Source: Candidatus Eiseniibacteriota bacterium
GTDB lineage: Bacteria; Eisenbacteria; RBG-16-71-46
Assembly (NCBI GenBank): GCA_044222065.1
Contig: JBGAOA010000018.1
Coordinates: forward strand, 1-63,807
DNA length: 63,807 bases
Reading direction: 5' to 3'
Shown here: piece by piece, positions 17,447 to 63,807 of the stretch
Layout: every line of letters begins with the position of its first letter
How positions within the stretch are numbered: the first letter of the stretch is position 1
Position numbers and translations under genes: made by a program
Notes under the pieces: generated by a model
What the model saw: the letters and a program-made list of their open reading frames with translations, nothing else
Told to the model about the DNA's origin: nothing
The model's database searches: none

Positions 17447-18136
17447 TCAGGCCGGCCGCTCGACCGGCCGCCGCGTGCCGCCGTGGAGCAGGGCGAAGAT
17501 GATCGGCAGCTCGCCGAAGTAGAGCGGGAACGCGACTCGATTGACCATCGCCCGGTAGTCGGGGAACGCGATCGTCGTCACGCTCGTGGCGACGTAGGCG
17601 GCGCCTGCGATCCACAGTAGCACGCCGAACGCGCGCGGGAAGTACCCGGACTTGATGACCAGCGTGCCGAACGGGAAGAGCCACAGCCCCCAGAACACCG
17701 ACGCGATCGTGCCGCCCGTGCCGTGCAGCCGGAGTGCTGTGAGCGAGAGCGCCTCGAGCTGTTCGCGCGTGAACACGCTCAGGTAGTCCGCGCCCTTGAG
17801 GAGCAGAAGCGGCACGAACTCGTTCAGCACGTTCGCGAACGAGATCGTCACCCCGACCGCGACGAGCAGGACCATGCGCAGCGACTGCGTCTCGTCCACG
17901 CCGCGGAAGAGCCGGTGCAGGCTCGCGACGAGGTAGACGAACAGCACGAGCGTCAGCATGCCGGCGAGCACGGTGAGCCGGTACGTCGACTCGCCCGCGA
18001 GGAGGTTGCGCGCGGTGGCGGCCGCGTCGCCCCGCACGAGGACGTCGGGCAGCACGAACTCGCGGATCACTCCGAAGACGGCGAACACGAAGTAGAGCAG
18101 CCCGGCCTTGCGCGCGGCGCGAATCGTGGACGACAT
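17447..18136 (-). CDS. DUF4386 family membrane protein
   Basis: 229 aa with four predicted TM segments. The N-terminus MSSTIRAARKAGLLYFVFAVFG matches the DUF4386 pattern. Confidence 0.65.
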   Translation of the reverse strand: MSSTIRAARKAGLLYFVFAVFGVIREFVLPDVLVRGDAAATARNLLAGESTYRLTVLAGMLTLVLFVYLVASLHRLFRGVDETQSLRMVLLVAVGVTISFANVLNEFVPLLLLKGADYLSVFTREQLEALSLTALRLHGTGGTIASVFWGLWLFPFGTLVIKSGYFPRAFGVLLWIAGAAYVATSVTTIAFPDYRAMVNRVAFPLYFGELPIIFALLHGGTRRPVERPA

Positions 18137-51919: not shown

Positions 51920-52170
51920 GGAACCTCCGTGGAATGGACGGCGGATCGGGGGCCGACTCTACGTGCCCCGGTTCGCTCACGCCATGGAGACCTCGTGACT
52001 CCCCACGCCCCCGCGATTCGCCCCTGTCTCGGTGTCACACCCGGGGGGCGTCGTCGACTGCTCGACCGAATGTGGTCGTTCGCCGCCGGACGAAGCCCGC
52101 GCCTCGATGGCGCAGCGCCTCCGGGGACGACGTGTCATGGACACCCCGCCCCGAACGAAAGGTGCCCCCC

Positions 52171-54000
52171 ATGGATTTCCCGAAGTCCATCCGACTCGAA
52201 ATGGCCGGAGTCCCGCACGAATTCCACTTCGACGATGCGGAGGGATTCCTAAACTTTCGTTCGAACCTCGAACTGATTCGTCGGAGCGAACCCGTCGAGC
52301 GCGCGGCACGCATCGAGGAACTCGAGCGCCAGCAGCAGGCGCTGCTCGAGCGACACGAAGGCCTGCGTCACGAGATCGACGCCGTCGACGCCGAGATCGA
52401 CGAGTTCGGCTTCGCATCGCGCATGGGGGTGATCGGAGGCGGCCTGCAGGTGATCAAGGGCCTCGCGACCGGAGGTGTCACCGCCCTCGGAGTGGCGACG
52501 GGTCCCATCGGCAAGCTGATCGACGCCGAGTACGGAATCCTGCAGTCGGCGATCGACGTGAAGAGCGGCGAAGCGCTCGATGCCACCGATGCCGCGGTTC
52601 CCGTCGATCTCGCCGGCGAAGCGCTCTCGGCCACGGGCCACAGGCTCGCCGGCCGCGCGATGGGCGCCGCGGCGCTCGGCCTCAGCGCCTACGAGGCATC
52701 GCACGACGTGCTGGAAGGCGGGCGCACGATCTCCGAGATGACCGAGAACCGCGCGCGCCTCCTGAACGAAGGAGACGCCGCGAAGGAACGCTATGCCTCG
52801 CAGATGCAGGAAGCGGCGACTCGATACGACGAACTTCAGCACGAGAAGGACGCGCTGCGCTCGGCCCACGACGAGACGTTTCATCGCTCGCTCGACGACC
52901 TCGACCGTCTCTACCCGGAGGCCGCCGCTCAGCTTCGGAAAGAATGGCAGGACTCGTCGCCCCGGGCAGCGTTCGACGATCACGAATCGCATCCCGCCCG
53001 CACACCGGACCACTCCACGGAGGAAGACATGACGAACTCGCTCGGGAACGAATCGGACGCTTACGCTTCGGCGGCGACACAGCAGCACACGGACAGTGCG
53101 CACGCGGCTGCGCTCGAGGCCGCGGGCCACACTCAGAGCGCGCACGAGGCCGCGCTCGAAGCCACGGAGCAGGCGCACGGCGCGGCGCAGGCCGGGAACG
53201 AGGCTCGCGAACACGCCGAGGCGGCGGGTCAGCACGAGCAGGATGCCCTGACCGCGTCGCAGCACGCGCAGGAATCCGAGCAGCAGGCGACTGCCGCGTC
53301 GCAGCACGCGCAGGAGTCCGAGCAGCAGGCGACGACCGCGTCGCAGCACGCGCAGGAGTCCGAGCAGCAGGCGACGACCGCGTCGCAGCACGCGCAGGAG
53401 TCCGAGCAGCAGGCGACGACCGCGTCGCAGCACGCGCAGGAATCGGAGCAGCAGGCCTCCGCCCTGCTCGGCCAGATTCAGCAGCTCGAGCAGCAGGCGG
53501 AGACCGCGACACAGCACGTGATCGAGGCCGAGCAGCTGAGCGCGACTCTGGTCGGTCAGATGCAGGGCTACGAACACGACGCGACGGCGCTCCTGGAACA
53601 GACCCGTGGTCACGAGAACGAGGCTGCGACTTCGCTCGAACAGGCTCGTGGCCACGAAGGCGACGCGCACGCGTCGGCGGATCAGGCGCGCACGCTGTCA
53701 GAAGAAGTGGCGGGCCTTCGCGACGAATCGGCGTCCGCTCACGATCAGATCGAATCGTTCCGTCACGAGTGCGAGGCGTGGCACGCGGACGTCCAGCGCA
53801 TGCACGAGGATGCGATCCAGCTGCACCACGGCATCCAGGAGCTTCACAACCAGGCGCAGCAGCTGCTGGAGCAGGTGCAGGACGCGGCGCGCGAGGCCGC
53901 GCAGTCGGCCGATCAGGCCGCCGCGAGCGCCAAGAACGCCGAACACTTCGAACACGAAGCGGAGTCGGCCGCGACCCGCGCGAATTCCTGGGCCGGCTGA
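52171..54000 (+). CDS. Hypothetical coiled-coil protein with Gly-rich hydrophobic segment and 5x tandem 14-aa repeat (TASQHAQESEQQAT)
   Basis: ATG at 52171 is preceded by GAAAGGTG. 609 aa. Its 5' end is visibly lower in GC than the surroundings. It is the first gene of a four-gene cluster ending in Hsp70. Confidence 0.6.
   Translation: MDFPKSIRLEMAGVPHEFHFDDAEGFLNFRSNLELIRRSEPVERAARIEELERQQQALLERHEGLRHEIDAVDAEIDEFGFASRMGVIGGGLQVIKGLATGGVTALGVATGPIGKLIDAEYGILQSAIDVKSGEALDATDAAVPVDLAGEALSATGHRLAGRAMGAAALGLSAYEASHDVLEGGRTISEMTENRARLLNEGDAAKERYASQMQEAATRYDELQHEKDALRSAHDETFHRSLDDLDRLYPEAAAQLRKEWQDSSPRAAFDDHESHPARTPDHSTEEDMTNSLGNESDAYASAATQQHTDSAHAAALEAAGHTQSAHEAALEATEQAHGAAQAGNEAREHAEAAGQHEQDALTASQHAQESEQQATAASQHAQESEQQATTASQHAQESEQQATTASQHAQESEQQATTASQHAQESEQQASALLGQIQQLEQQAETATQHVIEAEQLSATLVGQMQGYEHDATALLEQTRGHENEAATSLEQARGHEGDAHASADQARTLSEEVAGLRDESASAHDQIESFRHECEAWHADVQRMHEDAIQLHHGIQELHNQAQQLLEQVQDAAREAAQSADQAAASAKNAEHFEHEAESAATRANSWAG
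53251..53460 (+). repeat. Five tandem copies of a 42-bp unit (ACCGCGTCGCAGCACGCGCAGGAGTCCGAGCAGCAGGCGACG), in-frame within the 52171-54000 CDS
   Basis: Read directly. Copies 3 and 4 are identical; the others differ by 1-4 nt. Confidence 0.9.
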
Positions 54001-54037: not shown

Positions 54038-55052
54038 CATGACTCGAGAGGAAGCCGCCGAGCTGCTCGGCACGACGCCCGAGGCCACGACGGGAGAAGT
54101 GCGGCGGAGGTTTCACGAGCTCTATTCCGAAATGCTCGTGCGCCTCACCAACGCGCCGACGCCCGCGCTCAGGAGCACGTACGAAGCGAACCTAGGAGAA
54201 CTCAAGGCGGCCTGCCGGATCCTGTCGCCGGGATACGACGAAGCGCACGATCGCGATCTCCCCACCTCACAGCCGCTCGCAGCTCAGCTCGTCGCACCCA
54301 TTGCGCCAGTGGCGCCGCTGACCGAAGCGCCCCCGAAGCGCCCGGGACTTTCGTGGTGGGCGCTTCCTCTCGCCATCCTGGGCGTCTACGCACTCGCGCT
54401 GGTCACGATGCGCGTCGGCCGAAGCGCCGAGCCGGCGGCCGCCGCTCCCGCTCAGATTCGCGTGACGCCGCCGTCGCAGGTGCCTGCCGTGCCCAGGAGC
54501 GGTCGCCCGAGCACCGAGTGGATCGGCTCCCGGAGCACACCGAAGCCGCGGCGCGAACCGGAGCGGACCGCCGAGGAGAGCCCGACCGCGGAGGCGGCCG
54601 TCCCCGTCACCGCCGCACCGCGCTATGAGACCCGCACGACGATGGAGCCGGTGACGAGCTACGTGAGCGAAACCGTTCCCGAACATCCGAACGGCGACAC
54701 CGAGCAGGTCGTCGAACGCCTGCACGACTACGACCTCTATCACGATCCGCCGGACCCGGCCGCCGATGGCGTCCTGCATCCGGGCAACAACTGCAGGCGG
54801 GTCGCCTGCGAGCATTACGGCCGCTGCGTCCACGGCCAGCCGAATCGCTGCCTCGTGTGCGGTGAGGGCCCCTTCACGCAACACGCCTTCGATTGGGCCC
54901 CGTGCCCGCACCCGCGACCCTGCACTCACCAGGCGGCGTGCAGTCATACGCGCGTCGAGTCGCACACCGTGCCGTGCCGGCACCTCGTCACGCGTCAACG
55001 CGCCGTCACCGAGATGCGCGCCGTCGAGCACGTCGTCGAGGTCTCGCGCTGA
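54038..55052 (+). CDS. Hypothetical protein: N-terminal J-domain-like helical region lacking HPD, one TM helix, Cys/His-rich C-terminal domain
   Basis: ATG at 54038 is preceded by AGAGGAGAG. The N-terminus MTREEAAELLGTTPEATTGEVRRRFHELYSEML resembles J-domain helix II without HPD. The TM helix is LSWWALPLAILGVYALALVTM. The C-terminus has 12 Cys and many His in ~75 aa (CRRVACEHYGRCVHGQPNRCLVCGEG...). Confidence 0.6.
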
Positions 55053-55113
55053 GGAACGGGGACGGGCCCGTCACACCCGGGCCCGTGCTCCGACTGCTGC
55101 GTCGGAGGACACG

Positions 55114-56835
55114 ATGAACGTCATTCGACCGACACCCGGCAGCGCACTCGAACAGACTCGGAAGTTGCTCGAAGACCTCGAACGTTGGGCCGCGAACGCG
55201 GACTCGCAGGCGCGAGGTCGCGAGGCGGCCGCGGAGATGCGGGGGCTTCGCGAGTTCTGCGAATCACCGCGCCTCGAGGTCGAAGTCGCCTGGTTCGGTG
55301 CGGAACGCGGAACGGCGACGGACATCGGGGCCGTGGGCGAGGCCGGGGACACGGGGCTCGCGAACTGCGCGGGGCCCGAATTCCGCCTCGTGGCGGCCTC
55401 GCACGAACGCGGCGGCAGCCGTCCGGTCGGCGAGGTCGTACCTCCGATCCTCGTGATCGTCGTCGGCCCGGGAGCAGACATCGGCGCGGACGTCCGGACA
55501 CGCGGCCTTCGCCTCGCGTTCGACCGCGGCGTGGTGCTCGTCTCCGCGGACGCCGGGGCGGCCTCGTTGGAGGCACTGATGGCCGACCTGTCCGAACTGG
55601 CGTTGGTCGTCGAGGACATCAGCGGCCCGGAACCGCTGCGGGATCGCGTGAAGGCGTGGCTGCGAGATCAGGGACGGCGATTCGACGCCCGCATGCTGCA
55701 ATCGCGCGCCGCCGCGAAGGCGGCGAGCACGACGCTTCAGGCCTGCGCAGAGGCCGCTTCGCAGAGCCTTCGCGGCGCCCGCGTGCGACGCGCCGTCATC
55801 CAGCAGCGCGTCGCGGGTCTGTCCGCGCGCACGACGGCCTCCAGTGTCGAACTCGGCGCTGATCTGCGCGCCCGGCTCGGTGCGCTCGTGACCGGCTATG
55901 AAGCGCGTCTTCACGAGCGCCTCGACGCCCTCACGGCCACGAGTGGCGACTCGTTCGTCACGCAGATCGATGCGCTCGCCAGCTCCGTTAAGGAACTACG
56001 ACAGCAGCACCAGGTGCAGACGACCGTGCTCACGGTCGACGAGCCCACGAGCGCCGGACTGCGGGACACCGTCGAGCGCCACATCCGTCCGCACCTGCGC
56101 AAGGACATCGAAGCCGCGCAGGCGCTCCTCGTCGCCGGGCGGGACGTCCTGACTTCGGCTCTCGAGCAGGCCGGCGCGCCGCCGTTCGTGCCTCAGTTCC
56201 AGCATCTCGGCGAAGACGCGGTCCGCCGCGTCGTCGAGCCGCTCACGACGGCGTCGATCCCGTATCGCGGCGAGGTCCACCGCCGGGGTCCGTTCGAGAT
56301 GTTCATGCTGGCACGGCGCTACCAGATGGTGTTCTACCTGCTGCTCACGATTTTCGGCGCGGGCATCAGCCGCGGCCAGGATCACCGCGGCGCCTGGATT
56401 GCCCTGTCTGCCGTGCTTCTGGCGATCGGCCTCGTGATCATGACGCGCACGGTGCGCCGGGAGCGTGCCTACGCGCTCGAGCGTGAACTCGAACGGGCGC
56501 GCGACGCGATCAAGCTGGAAGGCCGACGACTCGCGGGCGAACTCCAGCGCGCGTGGGTCCCGTTCCTCGCCCGTTACGTCCGCGACGAGATGCAGTCAAT
56601 GCACGCCCAGGGGGAAGCCCCGTTGCGCCAGCTGCAGGCCGCGCGCGCGACCGAGGCCGCGGACGAGAAGCAGCGCATCCAGCGCCAGATCCAGGCGCTC
56701 GAGACGAGCGAGCGGAGGCTCGCCACGCTGGCGCGCCAGCGGGAGGAGTTCGCCCACCGTCTGGCGCAGTTCCTCGGTCACCTGGACCAGATGCTCACCT
56801 CGACGCGCGAACCTCGCGAGGCGGAAACGCCATGA
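55114..56835 (+). CDS. Hypothetical protein with two C-proximal TM helices and coiled-coil tail
   Basis: ATG at 55114 is preceded by GGAGGA. 573 aa. The TM helices are MVFYLLLTIFGAGI and AWIALSAVLLAIGLVIM. Its stop overlaps the Hsp70 start (ATGA). Confidence 0.6.
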   Translation: MNVIRPTPGSALEQTRKLLEDLERWAANADSQARGREAAAEMRGLREFCESPRLEVEVAWFGAERGTATDIGAVGEAGDTGLANCAGPEFRLVAASHERGGSRPVGEVVPPILVIVVGPGADIGADVRTRGLRLAFDRGVVLVSADAGAASLEALMADLSELALVVEDISGPEPLRDRVKAWLRDQGRRFDARMLQSRAAAKAASTTLQACAEAASQSLRGARVRRAVIQQRVAGLSARTTASSVELGADLRARLGALVTGYEARLHERLDALTATSGDSFVTQIDALASSVKELRQQHQVQTTVLTVDEPTSAGLRDTVERHIRPHLRKDIEAAQALLVAGRDVLTSALEQAGAPPFVPQFQHLGEDAVRRVVEPLTTASIPYRGEVHRRGPFEMFMLARRYQMVFYLLLTIFGAGISRGQDHRGAWIALSAVLLAIGLVIMTRTVRRERAYALERELERARDAIKLEGRRLAGELQRAWVPFLARYVRDEMQSMHAQGEAPLRQLQAARATEAADEKQRIQRQIQALETSERRLATLARQREEFAHRLAQFLGHLDQMLTSTREPREAETP

Positions 56836-58355
56836 AGGTCGGAATCGATCTCGGCACGAGCTACTCGCTCATCGCGACCACGTCGCCGTCCGGGCAGCCG
56901 ATCCTGATTCCCGACTTCCTCGAGCGCGACGAGTTCCAGACGCCCTCGGTGATCCACCTGGGGCCGTCCGGCACGTTCGTCGGTGCGCTCGTCGACACGC
57001 TGCTCGAACAGCAGCCCGGGCTCAAGGCGATCCGCTACTTCAAGCGCTGGCTCGGACGCACCGAGCCCCTCCATTTCGACGAAGGAGGCGCCGCGTGGCA
57101 TCCGGAGAGCGTCGCGGCCCTCGTATTGAAGAAGCTCCGGTCCGATGCGGAGAGTTTCACCGGCACGTCGGTCGACGGCGCCGTCATCACCGTTCCGGCT
57201 CATTTCAACGATACGCAACGCAGGGCGGTGCTGTCGGCGGCGATGCTCGCGGACCTGCCCGTGCTCGGCCTCATCGAGGAGCCGGTGGCCGCCGCGCTGC
57301 ACTACGGCATCGTGAGCGAGGATCGCGACCGGGTCTTCGTCGTGTACGACCTCGGCGGCGGCACGTTCGACGTGAGCGCCATCTGCATGGATGAGAAAGG
57401 TGTCTACGTGCTCGCCAAGGACGGGCTCACGGACCTCGGCGGCAAGGAATTCGACGAACGCGTGGGCGGCATCATCCTCGCCCAGTTCGAGCGCGCGTTC
57501 GGGGACGTGCCCGCGCTGAGCGCGCGCTCCGTTCTCGACCTACGGCGGGCGGCCGAGGAACTGAAGATCGCGCTGTGCACGAGCGACGCTCCGCGCGTGG
57601 CGCGCGTGGTGATGCTCGGCGAGCGTGCGGTCGAGATCGTGCTCGAGCGCGCCGAGTTCGAACAGTCCGTGAGCGAACTCATCGAGGCGACGATCGCGTG
57701 CTGCCAGCGTTGTCTGACTCAGGCGGGACTGCGCCCCCGCGACGTCCACTCGGTGCTGATGGTGGGCGGTGGCTCGATGGTGCCGGCGGTCCGGCGCCGG
57801 CTCGAGCGGCTGTTCGACGGTCCGGAGCAGCGCGTGCTGCACCACGAACCGAGTCGCGCCGTGGCGCTCGGCGCCGCCCTGCGGGCGGCTCAGCTCGGCG
57901 ACGAGGCCCGCCCCCGCCAGCTTCCTCCCGAACTGCGCGGCGTCAGCGGACACACAGTGGCCGTCCGCACGATCGACGCCTCGACGGGACGTCCCGGCTT
58001 CGATCCCGTCATCAAACGCGGTTCACCGCTTCCCTCGCGAGCGGCCCGCACCTATTTCGCGACGCGTTCGGGCCAGAGCCGGCTCATCGTCGAGGTGGTG
58101 CAGTACGGGGACCGCGCCGAGGACTATGTGAGTCTCGGCGAGCTCGAGCTCGAACCGCTCGCTGGCGGCGCGCCGAACGGTGGCGCCAACGTGATCGTCG
58201 AGATGCTCGACGACGGCACGGTCACGCTCCGCGCCGCCGACCCCCGAGGCGGCGGCGAGATCGAGCGCACCCTGGTTCGCGCCGCGAGCGACGGTGTGCC
58301 GAACCTCGCGGCGCAGCGAGGCCTGGTCCGCTCGGCTCTCCTGAACCACCTCTAG
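56832..58355 (+). CDS. Hsp70-family ATPase, truncated (no C-terminal lid/EEVD), HscC-like
   Basis: 507 aa. Hsp70 NBD signatures: MKVGIDLGTSYS, ITVPAHFNDTQRRAV, VFVVYDLGGGTFDVS. The substrate-binding region is shortened. Confidence 0.85.
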   Translation: MKVGIDLGTSYSLIATTSPSGQPILIPDFLERDEFQTPSVIHLGPSGTFVGALVDTLLEQQPGLKAIRYFKRWLGRTEPLHFDEGGAAWHPESVAALVLKKLRSDAESFTGTSVDGAVITVPAHFNDTQRRAVLSAAMLADLPVLGLIEEPVAAALHYGIVSEDRDRVFVVYDLGGGTFDVSAICMDEKGVYVLAKDGLTDLGGKEFDERVGGIILAQFERAFGDVPALSARSVLDLRRAAEELKIALCTSDAPRVARVVMLGERAVEIVLERAEFEQSVSELIEATIACCQRCLTQAGLRPRDVHSVLMVGGGSMVPAVRRRLERLFDGPEQRVLHHEPSRAVALGAALRAAQLGDEARPRQLPPELRGVSGHTVAVRTIDASTGRPGFDPVIKRGSPLPSRAARTYFATRSGQSRLIVEVVQYGDRAEDYVSLGELELEPLAGGAPNGGANVIVEMLDDGTVTLRAADPRGGGEIERTLVRAASDGVPNLAAQRGLVRSALLNHL

Positions 58356-58592
58356 GCCGCCGCGGGGGGCTTCCGAATACGGCGTCACACCTGGCGCCCC
58401 TCCCCGACTCCGAGGGTGAAGCGCGCGGATGCGCGGTCGGACGACTCGGTCGAGGAAGCCCTCGCCCCCGAATCGAACTCCCGGCACCGGCGGGCCGACT
58501 CGACACACGCCGGAGGCGAACTCCGGCGACAGCCCGAGACGTGGAAGCGCCGACTCCCATCGAGCGGCGACCCAATGCGAGGAGGCAGGTCA

Positions 58593-59245
58593 TGCGGAAG
58601 GCGATGGTGTGGACGGCGCTGCTGACGATCCTGACGGTGAAGTCCGCCGTGGCGCAGACGATGTTCGGAGCGGAGGCGTACGGCAGCTCGAACCAGGTCG
58701 CGCTGGGATCGTGGGCGAGCGAACTGGTTCAGGAAGGCCGGAACGCCGGTGCGCTGACGAACGATCCGTCCCGCACGCCCGCCGGGGGCGGCGGGGTCCG
58801 GTTGCGCGGTGAGGGTTGGATGGCGTCGCTGGATTACGAGCGGCTCCCCGTCGCGCTCGACATGGAGGCGGGGCGTCACAAGGTCATGGGCGACTTCGCG
58901 GCCGACGTGATCGAAGCCAACGTCGGGCTGATGCTCGGGCGCGCGAAGGGCTTCGCGGTCGGGTTCGGCGGCGGAGTGAGCCTCTACAACATGTCCGGCG
59001 GGATTCAGCAGACCTACGACGGCGACCTCATCATGAATCGGACGATCGAGGGCGCGGCTGTCGGCGGACAGTTCATGGGCATGGTCGAGTGCAACCTCGG
59101 CGGACAGTTCTCCCTCCTCGGAGCCTTCGGTCAGCGTTCGGCGAAGCTCGAACAGCCCACCTCCGAGGGCGTGATCCTGCCCGTCGACATCGACTACTCG
59201 GGATCGTTCGTGAGGGTCGGCATCGCGACCTACTTCTCGCGGTAG
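58593..59245 (+). CDS. Outer-membrane beta-barrel protein (secreted)
   Basis: ATG at 58593 is preceded by AGGAGG. Signal peptide MRKAMVWTALLTILTVKSAVA. Alternating hydrophobic beta-strand pattern. 217 aa. Confidence 0.55.
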
Positions 59246-59333: not shown

Positions 59334-62300
59334 TCACCCCGCGTCGCCGACCAGCACGAACGCCGCCCAGTAGTACGGATGCGCATACGGACGCTGGCCG
59401 TCGCTGGTGCGGTACTCCCGCAGCCAGCGTTTCGCGTCGTTCAGCGCCTCCGACTTGCGGGCGAGTCCGCCGGGTTTCGCGAGGAGCGTCTCGTAGAAGC
59501 GATTCATGAGCAGCGACGTCGCGCGGTCGTCTACTTCCCACAGGCTCACGAGCACGCTGCGCGCCCCGCGCCGCAGGCACGCGTCCGCGAGCCCGAGGTA
59601 GCCCTCGCCGCCCGCGAAGCGGCCGAGACCCGTCTCGCAGGCCGACAGCGTCACGAGATCGGCGCCGAGCCGCCACTCGCTCGAGATCTCGCGCGCGGAC
59701 ACGAGGCCGTCGAAGATTCGCCTGCGCTCGATCGCGGCGTCGACGGGATCTGGAAGCGCGATCTGCGACAGCACGAGCGCAGAACGCTCGGGCCGGCGCG
59801 GATCCACGAGCGCGTGCGTCCCGAAGTGCAGGATCGCCGCGCGCTGCAGTTCACCGTCGCGCGCGAGTCGGACCAGCTCCTGCTCGCTGCTCCGCTCCCC
59901 GAACAAGAACCGGCTGTCCGGATCCGCGTGCTTGCGCAACGCCTCGATCTCGAGCCGCGTGCCGCGCAGGCGCGGGAGTCTCGACACGAAGCGCCGGTCC
60001 GCGCTCGCGGTCCGGCGCAGCGAGTCGCCCAGTGCGAACGACCGCGTGGTGCTCCGGTCGGCGCCGAGATCGACGCTCGGCCCCCCGCAGCGCCCCTCGG
60101 CGCTCATCTCGCGCAGTGCGTCGTCGGAGAACGGTGGATCGGCGAAGCACACGACGCGTGGCGCGCCCCCGCGCGGCTGCCCCGCGGCGCGGCCCCGCTC
60201 CCAGGCGAACAGCGTCGCCGACGGGACGTAGGACACCTCGAAGCGCTCCCCCATCGACGGCGCACCCGCGTCAGCGAGCGGTTCGATCGGCACGCCGTGC
60301 ATGTCACCCGAGGGAATGACCACCAGCCTCCGCACACCTTGGAGCGCGCCCATGAGCGGCGCCAGACGCGCGCGATAACACACCACGGCAGACGACATGG
60401 GGCTCCCCGGAATCTGTAACGCGCCACGTGCCGCGGTGACGACTCCGTTGCGCGAAGACTCGGCGGGCAACGGGAACCACTGCGGCGAGCCCCCGGCGCG
60501 CATCACGTAGGCATAGTCGGAGCGAGCGTTGTCCGCGGCGGTCACACTGAGCCACCCGACCAGTGCTTCGTCCGGGCGAAGGGCGCTTCGGACGGTCTCG
60601 AGGGTCGCGACGCCCGTCGTGCCCGCGCCTCGGCGGCGAACCTCGAGTCCGGCGTCGATCCAGCGCGCCTCCGCGAACTCCAACCGTTTCTGCGCCTGCA
60701 GCCGTTCGTCCGCACGAACGTCGGCGGCGCGCGCGAGCGCCTCCGCCGCGCGCGCCGCGTCCGCAACTTCGCGGCGCAGCGAGTCGAGCCGAACCGAAGC
60801 GTCGCCGCGCATGAGTTCCTCGGCGAGGTCGCGCGCGAGGTAACGCTCGATTGCGCTCCATGCGCCGTCCGCATCCCCGAGTCGGAGTCTCACGAGCGCG
60901 AGCTTCGGAAACGGCGACTCCACGTCGATCGCTTCACCCCGGCCTGTCACGCTCAGGTCCCGGGCCGCCTCGTAGTCGCGCGCGGCGTCGGCGAAGTAGC
61001 GCTCGGCGCGACGCACGTCGCCGACGCCGAGCGTCGCGTCTCCGAGATTGATCTCGGCTCCGATGTAGTCGCCGCTCAATCGGCCGCGGCTCCGACGAAG
61101 CGTCTCCTCCGCCCCGAGCAACGTGGTGCGGGCGCGCCCCCACTGCCCGAGATGCATCGCGCAGCTCGCCCAGTTCATCGCCGTGCGAGCGTGCGCCGGG
61201 ACGTTTCCGAGGCGGGCGGATTCCTGAATGTCCATGGCGCGGCGAAAGGTCCGCTGCGCGATGGAATAGTCTCCCCGGAAGTACTCGATCGTTCCCAGCA
61301 CCTGAACGCCCTTCGCGAAGTCCGAAAGGTTTCGGTCCGGCGTGCGCTCGTAGGTGGCGAGCGCGGCGCGGGCGATCGGGAGCGCCTCTTCGTCGCGGCC
61401 CTGCTTGCGCAGCGCCGCGGCGTAGTTGAGCCGCGCTTGAGCGACGTCCGGAGCGGAATCCCCGAGCGCCTTCACCCGTAGCCGGATCGCTTCCTTCAAG
61501 ACCTCCTCGGCCTCGGGGAAGTTCCCTTGCAGGTCGAGCGTGTGACCGAGGTTGTTGAGCCCCGTGGCGATCGACTCGTCGTCGTCGTGATCTCGAGACA
61601 GGGCGACCGATTCCCGATACAACGCCTCGGCCTCCGCCAGCTTTCCCACGTCCTCGTACAGCGTAGCGAGATTGTTGAGCGCCGCGTCGATCGCGGGATG
61701 CAACGGATCGAGTTCCTTGCGATTGATCGCCAGCGCCGCCTCGGCCGCACGAATCGCCTCGTCATAATCCCCGAGTTCCATCACGGTCACGGCGACGTTG
61801 TTGTACGCGCGCGCCGCCTCGTAGCTCGAGTCCCCGCACGCCGCGAGCACGAGCGGCAGCTCGAGTCGGGCCAGCGTCGCGGCGCTGTCGTACACCTCCC
61901 GCTCGTAGCAGTCCACGAACAGCACGTCGAGGCTGTCGCCGACTTCGAGCTTGCGCCGCAGCGATTCTGGAGCCGCGATCATCCCCGCGAGGAAGTCGTG
62001 ATTGCGGCGGGCGTCCAGCAGCCTCCAGCGCGGCGCTTCAGGGTCCGCTTCGAGACAGCGGACGAACGTCTGCGCGACGTCCAGCGAACCGGACCAGTCG
62101 CGTGCCATCCGCAAGGCCTGCGACTCGGCTTCGAGCGAGTCGGCGGCCGAAGGCGGCGGAGCGGCGGGAGCCTGAGCCGAAGGCCGGGCAGCACAGCCGG
62201 CGAGGAGCAGGGTGAGGGCGATGATCGCGAGCGGACGGACGGACCAGTGGCTCGCGCGGGAGCGAGCGACGCTCGGCACGTGCACGGCGGTCGAGTGCAT
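59334..62300 (-). CDS. TPR-repeat + CHAT (caspase-like protease) domain lipoprotein
   Basis: 988 aa. Lipobox LTLLLAGC. The N-terminal half has TPR-like repeats (LNNLATLYEDVGKLAEAEALY...). The C-terminal CHAT-like region has a conserved His...Cys context (ILHFGTHALVD ... TLSACETG). Confidence 0.8.
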   Translation of the reverse strand: MHSTAVHVPSVARSRASHWSVRPLAIIALTLLLAGCAARPSAQAPAAPPPSAADSLEAESQALRMARDWSGSLDVAQTFVRCLEADPEAPRWRLLDARRNHDFLAGMIAAPESLRRKLEVGDSLDVLFVDCYEREVYDSAATLARLELPLVLAACGDSSYEAARAYNNVAVTVMELGDYDEAIRAAEAALAINRKELDPLHPAIDAALNNLATLYEDVGKLAEAEALYRESVALSRDHDDDESIATGLNNLGHTLDLQGNFPEAEEVLKEAIRLRVKALGDSAPDVAQARLNYAAALRKQGRDEEALPIARAALATYERTPDRNLSDFAKGVQVLGTIEYFRGDYSIAQRTFRRAMDIQESARLGNVPAHARTAMNWASCAMHLGQWGRARTTLLGAEETLRRSRGRLSGDYIGAEINLGDATLGVGDVRRAERYFADAARDYEAARDLSVTGRGEAIDVESPFPKLALVRLRLGDADGAWSAIERYLARDLAEELMRGDASVRLDSLRREVADAARAAEALARAADVRADERLQAQKRLEFAEARWIDAGLEVRRRGAGTTGVATLETVRSALRPDEALVGWLSVTAADNARSDYAYVMRAGGSPQWFPLPAESSRNGVVTAARGALQIPGSPMSSAVVCYRARLAPLMGALQGVRRLVVIPSGDMHGVPIEPLADAGAPSMGERFEVSYVPSATLFAWERGRAAGQPRGGAPRVVCFADPPFSDDALREMSAEGRCGGPSVDLGADRSTTRSFALGDSLRRTASADRRFVSRLPRLRGTRLEIEALRKHADPDSRFLFGERSSEQELVRLARDGELQRAAILHFGTHALVDPRRPERSALVLSQIALPDPVDAAIERRRIFDGLVSAREISSEWRLGADLVTLSACETGLGRFAGGEGYLGLADACLRRGARSVLVSLWEVDDRATSLLMNRFYETLLAKPGGLARKSEALNDAKRWLREYRTSDGQRPYAHPYYWAAFVLVGDAG

Positions 62301-62415
62301 GCGCGGATCCTCCGAGGTTCGTGGAGATCCGAACCGCGAGAGCGGCGGCCCGGGCGGTCAGACTAGCGCATCCCGAGTCGCGTGCGGTCGATTGGACCTG
62401 GCGTCCGGTCGTGCG

Positions 62416-63360
62416 TCAGGGGCGCAGATGGATCGGGAAGTGAGCGAGACGCACCGCTCCCGTCGCGTCCTCCCACGAGAGGCGCAGCACGACGTCCGCG
62501 GTCGGCCAGTCGCCCTCCGCGCGGATCAGCGGGCCGCGCTCCGCGTCGAGCAGGTAGGCGCCTTCGACGGTCATGCGCTGCAGGATCTCCCCGCGCGTCG
62601 TGATCAGGGCGACCTCGACCGGGGCGTTCGGAGGCAGTTCGGGATCCAGCACGAGCGCGAGACGAAGACGCCGTTCTTCCGGGCGCGGCACGAGCAGCGT
62701 GTCGTTCGCGCCCGACGCCGAGGCAGGACCTTCGCGCGCCACGAGCGTGCGTGTCGCGGGGCCCGCCCCGAGTTCGAGGCGCAACAGCGAATCGTTGCGG
62801 ACGCCCCGAGTGACGCCTCCCTCCGGCTCGCCGATCTCGCCGCCGCCGCGCCCGAGCGGGCCCATGACGAGCAGGGCCGCCGCCGCGGCCGCGATCGCGC
62901 CGCCGAATGCGCCGCCGAACCAGAATTCGCGCCGCCGCCAGAACGACTCGATGCGCTCGACGCGGGGCGGCCTCGGCGTCGCCCCTTCCGAACGGGGAGC
63001 GATGCTCGCGAGCAATTCCGCCGAGGGCTCGAGCGCCTCGACGCGCTCGAGCACGGGTTCGTGCCCGAGGCGTCTCAACGTGTCGGAACATTCGTCGCAG
63101 CCCGCGAGATGGCGCCGAACGATCTCGCGTTGCAGGCCCTTCAAACGATCACGGCGGCGTTCCCACTGAGCGATCATCGCGTCCGGCAGGTGGCGGCCGA
63201 GGTTCGCGTCCGGGGTTCGCAGGGACTCGAGCGCGTCGCGGCACTCCGGGCAGTCGCTCACGTGCCGCTCGAATCGCGCTCGATCCGTTTCATCGAGCCA
63301 CCCCGTCACGTAGGCCGCCAGGCGCCCACGAACCCAGTCGTGTTCCGGCGTGTCGTTCAT
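62416..63360 (-). CDS. Anti-sigma factor with two zf-HC2-like motifs and one TM helix
   Basis: Motifs HVSDCPEC and HLAGCDEC (H-x3-C-x2-C, twice). TM helix FWFGGAFGGAIAAAAAALLVMGPL. ATGA overlap with the upstream sigma-factor stop. 314 aa. Confidence 0.65.
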   Translation of the reverse strand: MNDTPEHDWVRGRLAAYVTGWLDETDRARFERHVSDCPECRDALESLRTPDANLGRHLPDAMIAQWERRRDRLKGLQREIVRRHLAGCDECSDTLRRLGHEPVLERVEALEPSAELLASIAPRSEGATPRPPRVERIESFWRRREFWFGGAFGGAIAAAAAALLVMGPLGRGGGEIGEPEGGVTRGVRNDSLLRLELGAGPATRTLVAREGPASASGANDTLLVPRPEERRLRLALVLDPELPPNAPVEVALITTRGEILQRMTVEGAYLLDAERGPLIRAEGDWPTADVVLRLSWEDATGAVRLAHFPIHLRP

Positions 63361-63807
63361 GCGAGCCCCAAAAGGTTGCGCGCCCAGTCGCCGAGCGGGC
63401 CCTGATCCGCCCGGCAGATCTCGAGCGCGCGCTCACGGCAGCGCTCCGAGCGCTTGCGCGCCGCGGCGTGCGTGATCTCGAGGTGTTGCGCGACGGACGC
63501 GAGATTGAACGACTCGACCCATCGATCGAACAGCTCGCGACACTTCTCGCCGAGCGACTCGAGCAGGACGCGAACGTAGAACTGCGCCTCCTCGGGATCG
63601 AGCGGTTCGTCGTCCCCCTCGGGCACGACGACGCCCGGATCGCCCTCGAGCGCTTCGGTCCATTGTTTCCGTCGCATGCGGTTGATCGCCACGCGTTTCG
63701 CGATCGTGACCTCCATCGCCTCCCGGTTCCGCACGCCGCCGCACCGAACGGCTCGCAGCAGTCCGACCAGGCCCTCTTGTGCGAGGTCTTCGAGTTCGTC
63801 GGAGTCC
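63357..63807 (-). CDS. ECF-type RNA polymerase sigma-70 factor (partial; N-terminus lies beyond the window end)
   Basis: The region-4 HTH is FNLASVAQHLEITHAAARKRSERCRERAL. The reading frame continues to the window edge (DSDELEDLAQEGLVGLLRAVRCGG... region 2). Confidence 0.75.
   Translation of the reverse strand, partial: DSDELEDLAQEGLVGLLRAVRCGGVRNREAMEVTIAKRVAINRMRRKQWTEALEGDPGVVVPEGDDEPLDPEEAQFYVRVLLESLGEKCRELFDRWVESFNLASVAQHLEITHAAARKRSERCRERALEICRADQGPLGDWARNLLGLA

Follow-up and report, generated by a model that had tools for sequence, protein, structure and literature searches.

The 63,807-bp contig JBGAOA010000018.1 of a Candidatus Eiseniibacteriota bacterium (assembly GCA_044222065.1; about 70% G+C), which was analyzed over its whole length and is referred to here as the window, ends within a gene for a sigma factor of the extracytoplasmic function (ECF) type. 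This gene is followed by those of a predicted zinc-binding anti-sigma factor (ZAS) with one transmembrane (TM) helix and of a lipoprotein that combines tetratricopeptide repeats (TPR) with a CHAT domain, and a cluster of five genes (g1 to g5), one of which encodes a lid-less Hsp70 protein, converges on the lipoprotein gene. We suggest that the locus is an envelope signal-transduction switch, a split counterpart of the DdvS/DdvA system of Myxococcus xanthus with the Hsp70 cluster as its output, and we consider the chances for and against this reading to be evenly balanced.

In the proposed mechanism, the sigma factor, the anti-sigma factor and the TPR-CHAT lipoprotein would be made from one transcript, starting at an autoregulated promoter beyond the contig end. 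The single-pass anti-sigma would hold the sigma factor at the inner membrane by means of its cytoplasmic part with two zinc motifs, while the lipoprotein would reside in the periplasm beside the Gly-rich linker and the immunoglobulin (Ig)-like domain of the anti-sigma. The lipoprotein would act as a signal-sensing protease that clips the anti-sigma (site-1 cut), and intramembrane proteolysis would follow. Once the anti-sigma is inactivated, the freed sigma would read promoters of the type GTCACA-N15-CGACT, and g1-g2, g3-g4 (with the Hsp70 gene) and g5 would be expressed as the output.

Predicted promoters of the Hsp70 cluster

A bipartite element, (T/C)GTCACA-N14/15-CGACT.CC, is shared by the regions upstream of the sigma genes in four foreign loci of the same sigma/anti-sigma family (L084, L086, L089 and L091), and it also precedes the divergent genes, there in reverse orientation, as well as other genes in these loci. 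A promoter matrix was built from ten such sites, all of them taken from the four foreign loci. The three best matches in the window (P1 to P3, Table 1) are all intergenic, on the plus strand and correctly oriented for g1, g3 and g5, so that they split the cluster into g1-g2, g3-g4 and g5; the -10 element of P2 ends 18 nt before the ATG codon of g3. The fourth-best match (16.2 bits, minus strand, position 17581) lies inside an open reading frame (ORF) of 762 aa and was set aside.

When 200 versions of the window were simulated with a second-order Markov model, a match of 20 bits arose at least once in only 5% of them, and no matrix match of 20 bits or more was found in 871 kb of unrelated loci. 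Moreover, in the locus L093, which had not been used for training, three matches of 23-25 bits are located before the sigma gene, the FeeM gene in divergent position and the gene that follows. The GTCACA-N15-CGACT motif is found upstream of the sigma gene in L084, L086, L089, L091 and L093, and in three copies in the window. Since all three matches in the window precede g1, g3 and g5, the Hsp70 cluster is the predicted regulon, and it is likely that the sigma factor drives it from the three predicted promoters. The preliminary description of this DNA, in which a search for an ECF promoter upstream of the Hsp70 operon had been suggested, had the CHAT locus merely abutting that operon; the adjacency is correct (the two are convergent and 88 nt apart), but the operon appears to be the regulon and not a mere neighbour.

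The Hsp70 protein encoded by g4 scores below every curated NCBIfam cut-off for DnaK, HscA, HscC and others, and it has matches to DnaK and BiP in the Protein Data Bank (PDB) over residues 3-496. One further gene of the cluster has a recognizable relative: the gene divergent from sigma in L084, which sits behind the same GTCACA-N15-CGACT element, begins with MDYPKAVTVEIGGRPREFHFD, matching the N-terminus of g1, MDFPKSIRLEMAGVPHEFHFD. A tblastn search with this 21-aa fragment of L084 against the six-frame translation of the window gave E 4e-7 at 52171-52233, and apart from it tblastn of g1-g5 against all loci examined found nothing. Because L084 also contains the sigma, anti-sigma and CHAT genes, these genes and the g1 cluster appear to travel together in two distant genomes, in differing arrangements.

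In the relatives of the window sigma, the GTCACA-N15-CGACT motif precedes genes for a FeeM-like N-acyltransferase, an ICMT/PEMT methyltransferase and PKD-domain proteins (L086 2781-6305, L087, L093 359-1708 and L091), and FeeM-like acyltransferase, ICMT and PKD genes lie close by in L086, L091 and L093. This suggests that these relatives have a different regulon, possibly one for an acylated small molecule or lipid. A second conserved element, C(C/G)GATAGT(T/C), precedes the -35 element of the sigma promoters at a variable distance of 20-27 nt (L084 ~165-172, L086 ~6270, L089 ~385, L091 ~6295); another regulator may bind there.

Transcription of the TPR-CHAT gene

In the preliminary description the CHAT gene was thought to be under dedicated ECF control and to start 115 nt downstream of the anti-sigma gene. 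The distance is exact, but the matrix scan found no ECF-type promoter within it: neither the gap nor the anti-sigma gene contains a match to the promoter matrix of the sigma family. Scans of the gap for sigma-70 promoters and terminators were negative too, and its RNA folding is not unusual (z = 0.17). One sequence in it that is motif-like by eye, GGTCCAA-N11-CGACTCGG, was rejected on account of a spacer of insufficient length and a score of less than 11 bits. Since the gap lacks an ECF-type promoter, and since the equivalent gap in L084, the nearest relative whose gene context is known, is 8 nt, we infer that the CHAT gene is probably co-transcribed with the sigma and anti-sigma genes by read-through. 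ECF control of the CHAT gene, if real, would then be exerted via co-transcription, as no promoter of its own was found.

Recurrence of the sigma/anti-sigma/CHAT neighbourhood

Species-representative genomes were scanned with an alignment of the closest CHAT domains, which gave 595 relatives, and the best 80 loci were kept. These 80 loci span Acidobacteriota, Latescibacteria, Krumholzibacteriia, Planctomycetota, Bacteroidota, Calditrichaceae, cyanobacteria and others. Most of the 80 CHAT proteins start with a signal peptide or a lipobox, and an N-terminal zinc motif was found in none of the 80 CHAT ORFs. Iterated profile searches of all ORFs identified an ECF sigma gene within 6 kb of the CHAT gene in 31 loci; it is tightly linked to the CHAT gene in 24, with a gap of less than 100 nt in 20. 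Three gene orders can be observed, namely sigma-antisigma-CHAT, CHAT-sigma-antisigma, and CHAT convergent with antisigma-sigma; eight of the linked loci are convergent and hence cannot be co-transcribed. The gene after sigma nearly always encodes a ZAS anti-sigma of 230-340 aa, with H-x3-C-x2-C and one TM helix. At an identity threshold of 35%, the linked sigma factors form at least 12 clusters, and both motifs of the catalytic His/Cys dyad are kept in all 24 sigma-linked CHAT proteins. On the basis of the background (seven unlinked sigma genes in 871 kb), about 2.6 tight linkages are expected, compared to the 24 observed. Taking the number of linked loci, the three gene orders, the sigma clusters and the expected value together, the association of sigma, anti-sigma and CHAT is real and broad. 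In the literature that we searched, CHAT neighbours are mentioned only for ECF54, a group without an anti-sigma.

A coincidental adjacency, in which the sigma/anti-sigma pair would have nothing to do with the CHAT gene beside it and the promoter matches would be due to chance or be read by another sigma factor, has to be weighed against these data. The genes are separated by 115 nt without overlap, the nearest CHAT homolog has no sigma neighbour, and GC-rich genomes yield many partial motif matches. Nevertheless, three correctly oriented intergenic matches of at least 20 bits were obtained where about 0.05 are expected, the untrained L093 validates the matrix, L084 repeats the association of sigma, anti-sigma, CHAT and g1, and the tight linkages in the 80 loci far outnumber the expected ones. 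Coincidence is thus highly improbable.

Other arrangements were also noted among the loci. In the P0006 locus, an ECF sigma gene is followed by a gene for a Ser/Thr protein kinase and then by two tandem TPR-CHAT genes with a PDZ insertion in the CHAT domain, and L051, in which a 574-aa gene without a zinc motif lies between sigma and CHAT, may resemble it. The sequence TGAGAA-N17/18-CATCTAT(A/T)T is shared upstream of some sigma genes of the CHAT-linked cluster A, which are Aminicenantes-like (L042 9287, L050 6261, L053 3387, L073 ~6215), and TGAGAA-N17/18-CATCTAT is a candidate promoter for this sigma group. A promoter motif shared by sigma and CHAT genes was sought in three other sigma clusters; only the cluster-A element emerged, and nothing was found before the CHAT genes.

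Organization of the locus and domains of the sigma factor and the TPR-CHAT protein

The features of the locus are listed in Table 1. The stop codon of the sigma gene and the start codon of the anti-sigma gene overlap in GCATGAAC, so that the ATGA coupling proposed earlier can be read directly in the sequence.

Table 1. Predicted genes, motifs and promoters in the sigma/anti-sigma/CHAT locus and the Hsp70 cluster of the window.
Feature	Position	Strand	Basis or remark
ECF sigma factor gene, truncated to its last 149 codons (3' part)	63357..63807	-	in-frame translation; Sigma70_r2 E 1e-6
Membrane anti-sigma gene, 314 aa	62416..63360	-	zf-HC2 E 1.9e-10
First H-x3-C-x2-C motif of anti-sigma, residues 33-40, HVSDCPEC	63241..63264	-	motif read and family alignment
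Second H-x3-C-x2-C motif of anti-sigma, residues 84-91, HLAGCDEC	63088..63111	-	motif read and family alignment
Anti-sigma TM helix, residues ~146-169	62854..62925	-	Kyte-Doolittle window >1.6; hydrophobic stretch ~146-170
Anti-sigma/CHAT spacer, 115 nt	62301..62415	-	good ribosome-binding site GGAGGA 7 nt before CHAT ATG
TPR-CHAT lipoprotein gene, 988 aa	59334..62300	-	Pfam; lipobox; AlphaFold model
Catalytic His829 codon, LHFGTHA	59814..59816	-	>=90% conserved, alignment A2
Catalytic Cys888 codon, TLSACETG	59637..59639	-	invariant, alignment A2
g1, 609 aa, coiled-coil and repeat protein	52171..54000	+	no family match (library searches); N-terminus homologous to L084 gene divergent from sigma
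g2, 337 aa, membrane protein, Cys/His-rich C-terminus	54039..55052	+	no family match (library searches)
g3, 573 aa, membrane and coiled-coil protein	55114..56835	+	no family match (library searches); ATGA-coupled to g4
g4, 507-aa lid-less Hsp70 (nucleotide-binding domain and beta substrate domain)	56832..58355	+	PF00012 E 2.8e-75
g5, 217-aa exported protein with signal peptide	58592..59245	+	no family match (library searches)
Predicted promoter P1, GTCACA-N15-CGACTGC	52034..52061	+	20.3 bits; ~110 nt upstream of g1
Predicted promoter P2, GTCACA-N15-CGACTGC	55070..55097	+	24.7 bits, best in window; 61-nt g2-g3 spacer
Predicted promoter P3, GTCACA-N15-CGACTCC	58384..58411	+	20.6 bits; g4-g5 spacer

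The gene at the contig end had been described as that of an ECF sigma factor. Its identity is supported by the Sigma70_r2 match of the fragment and by a full-length ortholog, P0123 (187 aa, 81% identical), which passes the sigma70-ECF model TIGR02937 (46.4 bits, cut-off 42.9, residues 37-165), so that the protein belongs to the ECF (group 4) sigma-70 factors by domain model; the gene is, however, incomplete, because the contig stops before its 5' end. None of the Pfam region-4 models reached its threshold for the sigma, and a PDB sequence search found no match to it among solved sigma factors. The contig breaks inside the sigma gene at 63807, and two independent contigs from the Joint Genome Institute with the closest CHAT homolog (L001 and L002) share one break point, 1.6 kb upstream of the CHAT homolog and beside a tRNA-like stretch. 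Assembly breaks near CHAT loci may reflect repeats or strain variation.

The 988-aa protein agrees well with the TPR and CHAT lipoprotein that had been predicted for this locus. Its CHAT domain (PF12770) was detected with 199 bits (E 1.4e-58) over residues 642-986, many TPR families match the same protein, and its N-terminus carries a lipoprotein signal with the lipobox LLAGC (Cys36, codon 62193-62195). In the AlphaFold model (predicted local distance difference test score, pLDDT, 86.6; predicted template modelling score, pTM, 0.83), a long TPR superhelix, which spans residues ~50-560, is followed by the alpha/beta CHAT domain. The conservation of the His/Cys dyad, which the preliminary description had left to an alignment, was examined in 41 CHAT homologs (alignment A2): since all of them have Cys888 and conservation of His829 is 90% or higher, the caspase-like dyad is intact. 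The PF12770 match, the caspase-hemoglobinase fold and the dyad place the protein in the CHAT family of clan CD, as a putative caspase-like protease.

The best PDB fold match of the model is DdvA (8rw5, 8rot; E 2.6e-14 over 973 aligned columns), and the next matches are Csx29 (8eey_B) and then separases, the CHAT-fold matches ranging from E 1e-11 to 1e-14. PDB sequence searches gave only TPR proteins and one marginal match to Csx29, with no link between the CHAT protein and DdvA; the likeness to DdvA is therefore one of fold search and not of sequence.

The anti-sigma factor and its family

The window anti-sigma matches the Pfam model zf-HC2 (41.1 bits, cut-off 22.2, E 1.9e-10), the anti-sigma model NF052375 in two stretches, and Mycobacterium tuberculosis RslA (3hug_B) over residues 15-57. 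The two H-x3-C-x2-C motifs and the TM helix that had been noted earlier were all recovered (Table 1), and, as in class I ZAS proteins, the N-terminal H-x3-C-x2-C domain is encoded beside the sigma gene. The protein is thus a predicted zinc-binding, sigma-inhibiting membrane protein. In an alignment of the eight closest family members, the residues H7/H33/C37/C40 and H57/H84/C88/C91 are invariant, so that both HHCC ligand sets of the family are complete; these eight members also share the conserved block LRGLQRELVRRHL. Both zinc motifs are also invariant in six CHAT-linked anti-sigmas of other loci, and a double zinc motif is present in the CHAT-linked anti-sigmas of L005, L006, L033 and L047. 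According to the AlphaFold (AF2) model (pLDDT 80.9), residues 4-120 are helical, residues 131-180 (TM helix and Gly-rich linker) have low confidence, and residues 193-312 form a beta-sandwich, for which only generic Ig-like fold matches were obtained, none of them informative. Compared to its 83% identical ortholog P0122, the periplasmic domain is near-identical, and the cytoplasmic part is far more divergent.

An exhaustive profile-free search identified 453 cluster representatives of the family at E <=1e-3 and 180 at E <=1e-10. Most of the members have 290-340 aa, and their alignment spans both zinc motifs and the TM helix. The genome scan with the anti-sigma alone gave no match, and a metagenome scan with the family alignment gave a single 1.8-kb contig only. 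Exact searches with the window CHAT protein and with P0122 identified no indexed contig, so that the 5' end of the sigma gene and its promoter were not recovered. The arrangement of the window was found again in L084, where the sigma gene and that of a 41% identical anti-sigma are followed, after 8 nt, by a 1210-aa TPR-CHAT gene (CHAT E 6e-56). In L086/L087, L088, L089 and L090, the sigma and anti-sigma genes are followed by that of a ~190-aa exported protein and then, where the contig extends, by that of a 3420-aa M10 peptidase. The third gene thus varies within this family, CHAT being one of several alternatives. The conserved ~190-aa exported protein that holds the slot of CHAT has no family match (L086 7944-8525, L088 1250-1834, L089 2105-2662, L090 1366-1947), and the 3420-aa M10 peptidase after it in L086 has a FlgD_ig C-terminal domain. 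In L091, the sigma gene comes directly after type VI secretion genes (TssC, VgrG, PAAR).

Comparison with known systems

DdvA, the anti-sigma of the ECF sigma DdvS in M. xanthus, consists of a cytoplasmic zinc-bound domain, one TM helix and a periplasmic TPR-CHAT part (PMC11506125, PMC6061681). It has been proposed that its CHAT domain clips the juxtamembrane linker by autoproteolysis and that RseP acts thereafter; DdvS/DdvA regulates an island that combines CRISPR with the anti-phage signalling system CBASS, and the fused architecture has been reported only in Myxococcota and one Comamonas (PMC11506125). Like DdvS/DdvA, the window locus encodes an ECF sigma, a single-pass anti-sigma with a zinc domain, probably co-transcribed with it, and a predicted periplasmic TPR-CHAT module with a His/Cys dyad, and by analogy the same order of events (CHAT cut, intramembrane proteolysis, sigma release) may apply. 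In contrast to DdvA, the TPR-CHAT of the window is a separate lipoprotein gene product with its own signal and not the C-terminus of the anti-sigma, which for its part carries two zinc motifs and an Ig-like periplasmic domain of its own. Moreover, the window proteins have no detectable sequence similarity to DdvA, and the predicted regulon is the Hsp70 cluster and not a CBASS-CRISPR island, with no PADLOC matches. The split form appears in many phyla; the fused form was reported as rare.

In the type III-E Craspase, the TPR-CHAT protein Csx29 reportedly cleaves Csx30, which holds an ECF-type sigma, and the cut frees the sigma; Craspase is said to be cytoplasmic, RNA-guided and bound to Cas7-11. 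The TPR-CHAT protease is common to both systems, and Csx29 is the second-best fold match of the window CHAT protein. However, the latter is exported, no cas genes were seen around the locus, and the score with NF041237 is 16.1 bits, compared to a cut-off of 300. In the RseA/DegS/RseP pathway, two proteases act in turn to remove a membrane anti-sigma, first a periplasmic site-1 and afterwards a site-2 protease, and sigma-E-like operons are autoregulated and carry periplasmic accessory genes. The candidate site-1 protease of the window differs from DegS, a PDZ serine protease, in being a caspase-like cysteine protease of clan CD with a TPR scaffold, and in being encoded in the sigma operon itself.

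Among the ECF groups, the actinobacterial ECF54 has no anti-sigma and has CHAT, subtilase and carboxypeptidase neighbours, and protease control of its sigma has been proposed (PMC8999054, PMC7826278). The CHAT-domain protein as a conserved neighbour is shared with the window, whose ZAS anti-sigma sets it apart. The ECF41 promoter is TGTCACA-N16-CGTC (PMC3426412). Its -35 element is near-identical to that of the window family (GTCACA), its -10 element is similarly C-G-rich and the spacing is similar, but the -10 element of the window family is CGACT, not CGTC. Furthermore, ECF41 sigmas have a C-terminal SnoaL-like extension and no anti-sigma, whereas P0123 has no extension and is accompanied by an anti-sigma.

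Possible roles of the TPR-CHAT lipoprotein

A regulatory role of the CHAT protein is favoured by four points: DdvA provides a precedent, both proteins share a periplasmic location, the dyad is intact, and linkage to ZAS anti-sigmas is broad and does not depend on gene order. By analogy with DdvA, it may act on the anti-sigma as a regulatory protease or sensor, a role to which we assign a little less than an even chance; cleavage of the anti-sigma is the most conjectural step of the proposal.

Several observations speak against the switch proposed here. As far as the promoters are concerned, the specificity of the sigma is carried over from relatives whose anti-sigmas show 34-42% identity, and the contig ends before the promoter of the sigma gene itself is reached. 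As for the CHAT protein, its match to DdvA is barely better than those to Csx29 and the separases (TM-scores 0.33-0.37), and its closest homolog, P0002 (37% identity; L001/L002), has a tRNA and a small lipoprotein gene upstream instead of a sigma gene. The CHAT-linked anti-sigmas have unrelated periplasmic domains, which are TPR-like in L005 and L006 and Ig-like in the window. CHAT follows the anti-sigma in only two of the ~7 distinct loci of this sigma/anti-sigma family, and the anti-sigma family therefore does not need CHAT. The 81-83% identical pair P0123/P0122 lies on another contig of 61,571 bp, and no CHAT ortholog belonging to it was detected among 5.8 billion proteins. Finally, CHAT and the g1 cluster occur together in two of two loci with one or the other (the window and L084), which fits CHAT as an output equally well. 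The highest identity to the window CHAT protein in the 5.8-billion-protein collection is 37%; given the much closer sigma/anti-sigma pair, the CHAT gene may vary between close relatives.

Some of these observations are also those that agree with the alternative that the TPR-CHAT protein is only an output of the sigma, an exported protease that works with the Hsp70 cluster in the envelope and has no role in sigma release. This applies to the joint occurrence of CHAT and g1 and to the lack of a detectable CHAT ortholog for the P0123/P0122 pair. In addition, the downstream position of CHAT in the sigma operon is the usual place of ECF targets, and the same slot holds other cargo in this family, either the ~190-aa exported protein with the M10 peptidase or FeeM/ICMT. 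On the other hand, tight linkage recurs with the many sigma clusters and gene orders described above, including the eight convergent cases that cannot be co-transcribed, and DdvA shows that a TPR-CHAT module can be part of an anti-sigma. Moreover, no homologs of g1-g5 were found in the 80 CHAT-centred loci, which means that the linkage of CHAT to the sigma pair is general and that to the Hsp70 cluster is not. The absence of the candidate autoregulatory cluster-A motif before CHAT genes points weakly in the same direction. A role as output only thus keeps appreciable weight, although it is somewhat less likely than the regulatory role.

The locus had also been viewed as a conflict or programmed-death system, in which the ECF sigma would induce CHAT as a caspase-like effector, with death or arrest of the cell as the result. 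CHAT proteases do act in Craspase (Csx29) and neighbour other defence genes, DdvS/DdvA regulates the CBASS-CRISPR island, and the dyad of the window protein is intact. Nevertheless, its lipoprotein signal marks it as exported and therefore not cytoplasmic, and most of the 80 relatives have signal peptides. The PADLOC models gave no match to the sigma, anti-sigma, CHAT, Hsp70 or g3 proteins except a weak generic TPR match and a 12-bit match to GajA, and the Csx29 model reached 16 bits against its cut-off of 300. Cas, CBASS, NTPase and STAND (signal transduction ATPase with numerous domains) genes were not seen in the locus, nor were effector partners. The earlier view is thus not supported, and such a function is very unlikely.

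To our knowledge, caspase-like control of a sigma factor is known from two recent cases only, Craspase (Csx29/Csx30) and DdvA, for which the cut is a proposal. The components of the window locus, sigma, anti-sigma and CHAT, are of known kinds. The split arrangement of a separate exported TPR-CHAT protein beside a ZAS anti-sigma, with its breadth of phyla, the tandem-zinc anti-sigma family, and the GTCACA-N15-CGACT regulon with a non-canonical Hsp70 cluster are apparently new, as no description of any of them was found in the searchable literature. About 30% of the 80 sampled loci with exported TPR-CHAT proteins show the split arrangement. If the split system works as DdvA does, envelope signals would commonly be relayed by caspase-like proteolysis in several soil phyla that have been little studied, and the window offers a testable regulon, with three near-identical predicted promoters before an uncharacterized Hsp70 cluster. 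In its widest form, the proposal would be that free lipid-anchored or secreted TPR-CHAT proteins are widespread, undescribed site-1 proteases or sensors for ZAS ECF anti-sigmas in Acidobacteriota, Latescibacterota, Calditrichota and their relatives, that DdvA is a rare fused form of them, and that the switch here activates a non-canonical, membrane-associated Hsp70 machine (g1-g5); this generalization is speculative and, taken as a whole, rather unlikely.

Additional observations

The genes flanking the closest CHAT homologs often encode proteins that end with ...W(G)x(I/V/M)KALY(R/F) (L001 852-1517, L005 2465-3157 and 7509-7916, L004 2-3967, L006 7257-9413). This tail looks like a candidate C-terminal sorting signal of bacteria of the Fibrobacteres-Chlorobi-Bacteroidetes (FCB) group. 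In the window, g1 contains a tandem array with a period of 42 nt at 53250-53536 (4.9 copies, 95% matches), which encodes ASQHAQESEQQAT repeats, and a weaker 42-nt array is located at 53086-53184, also within g1.

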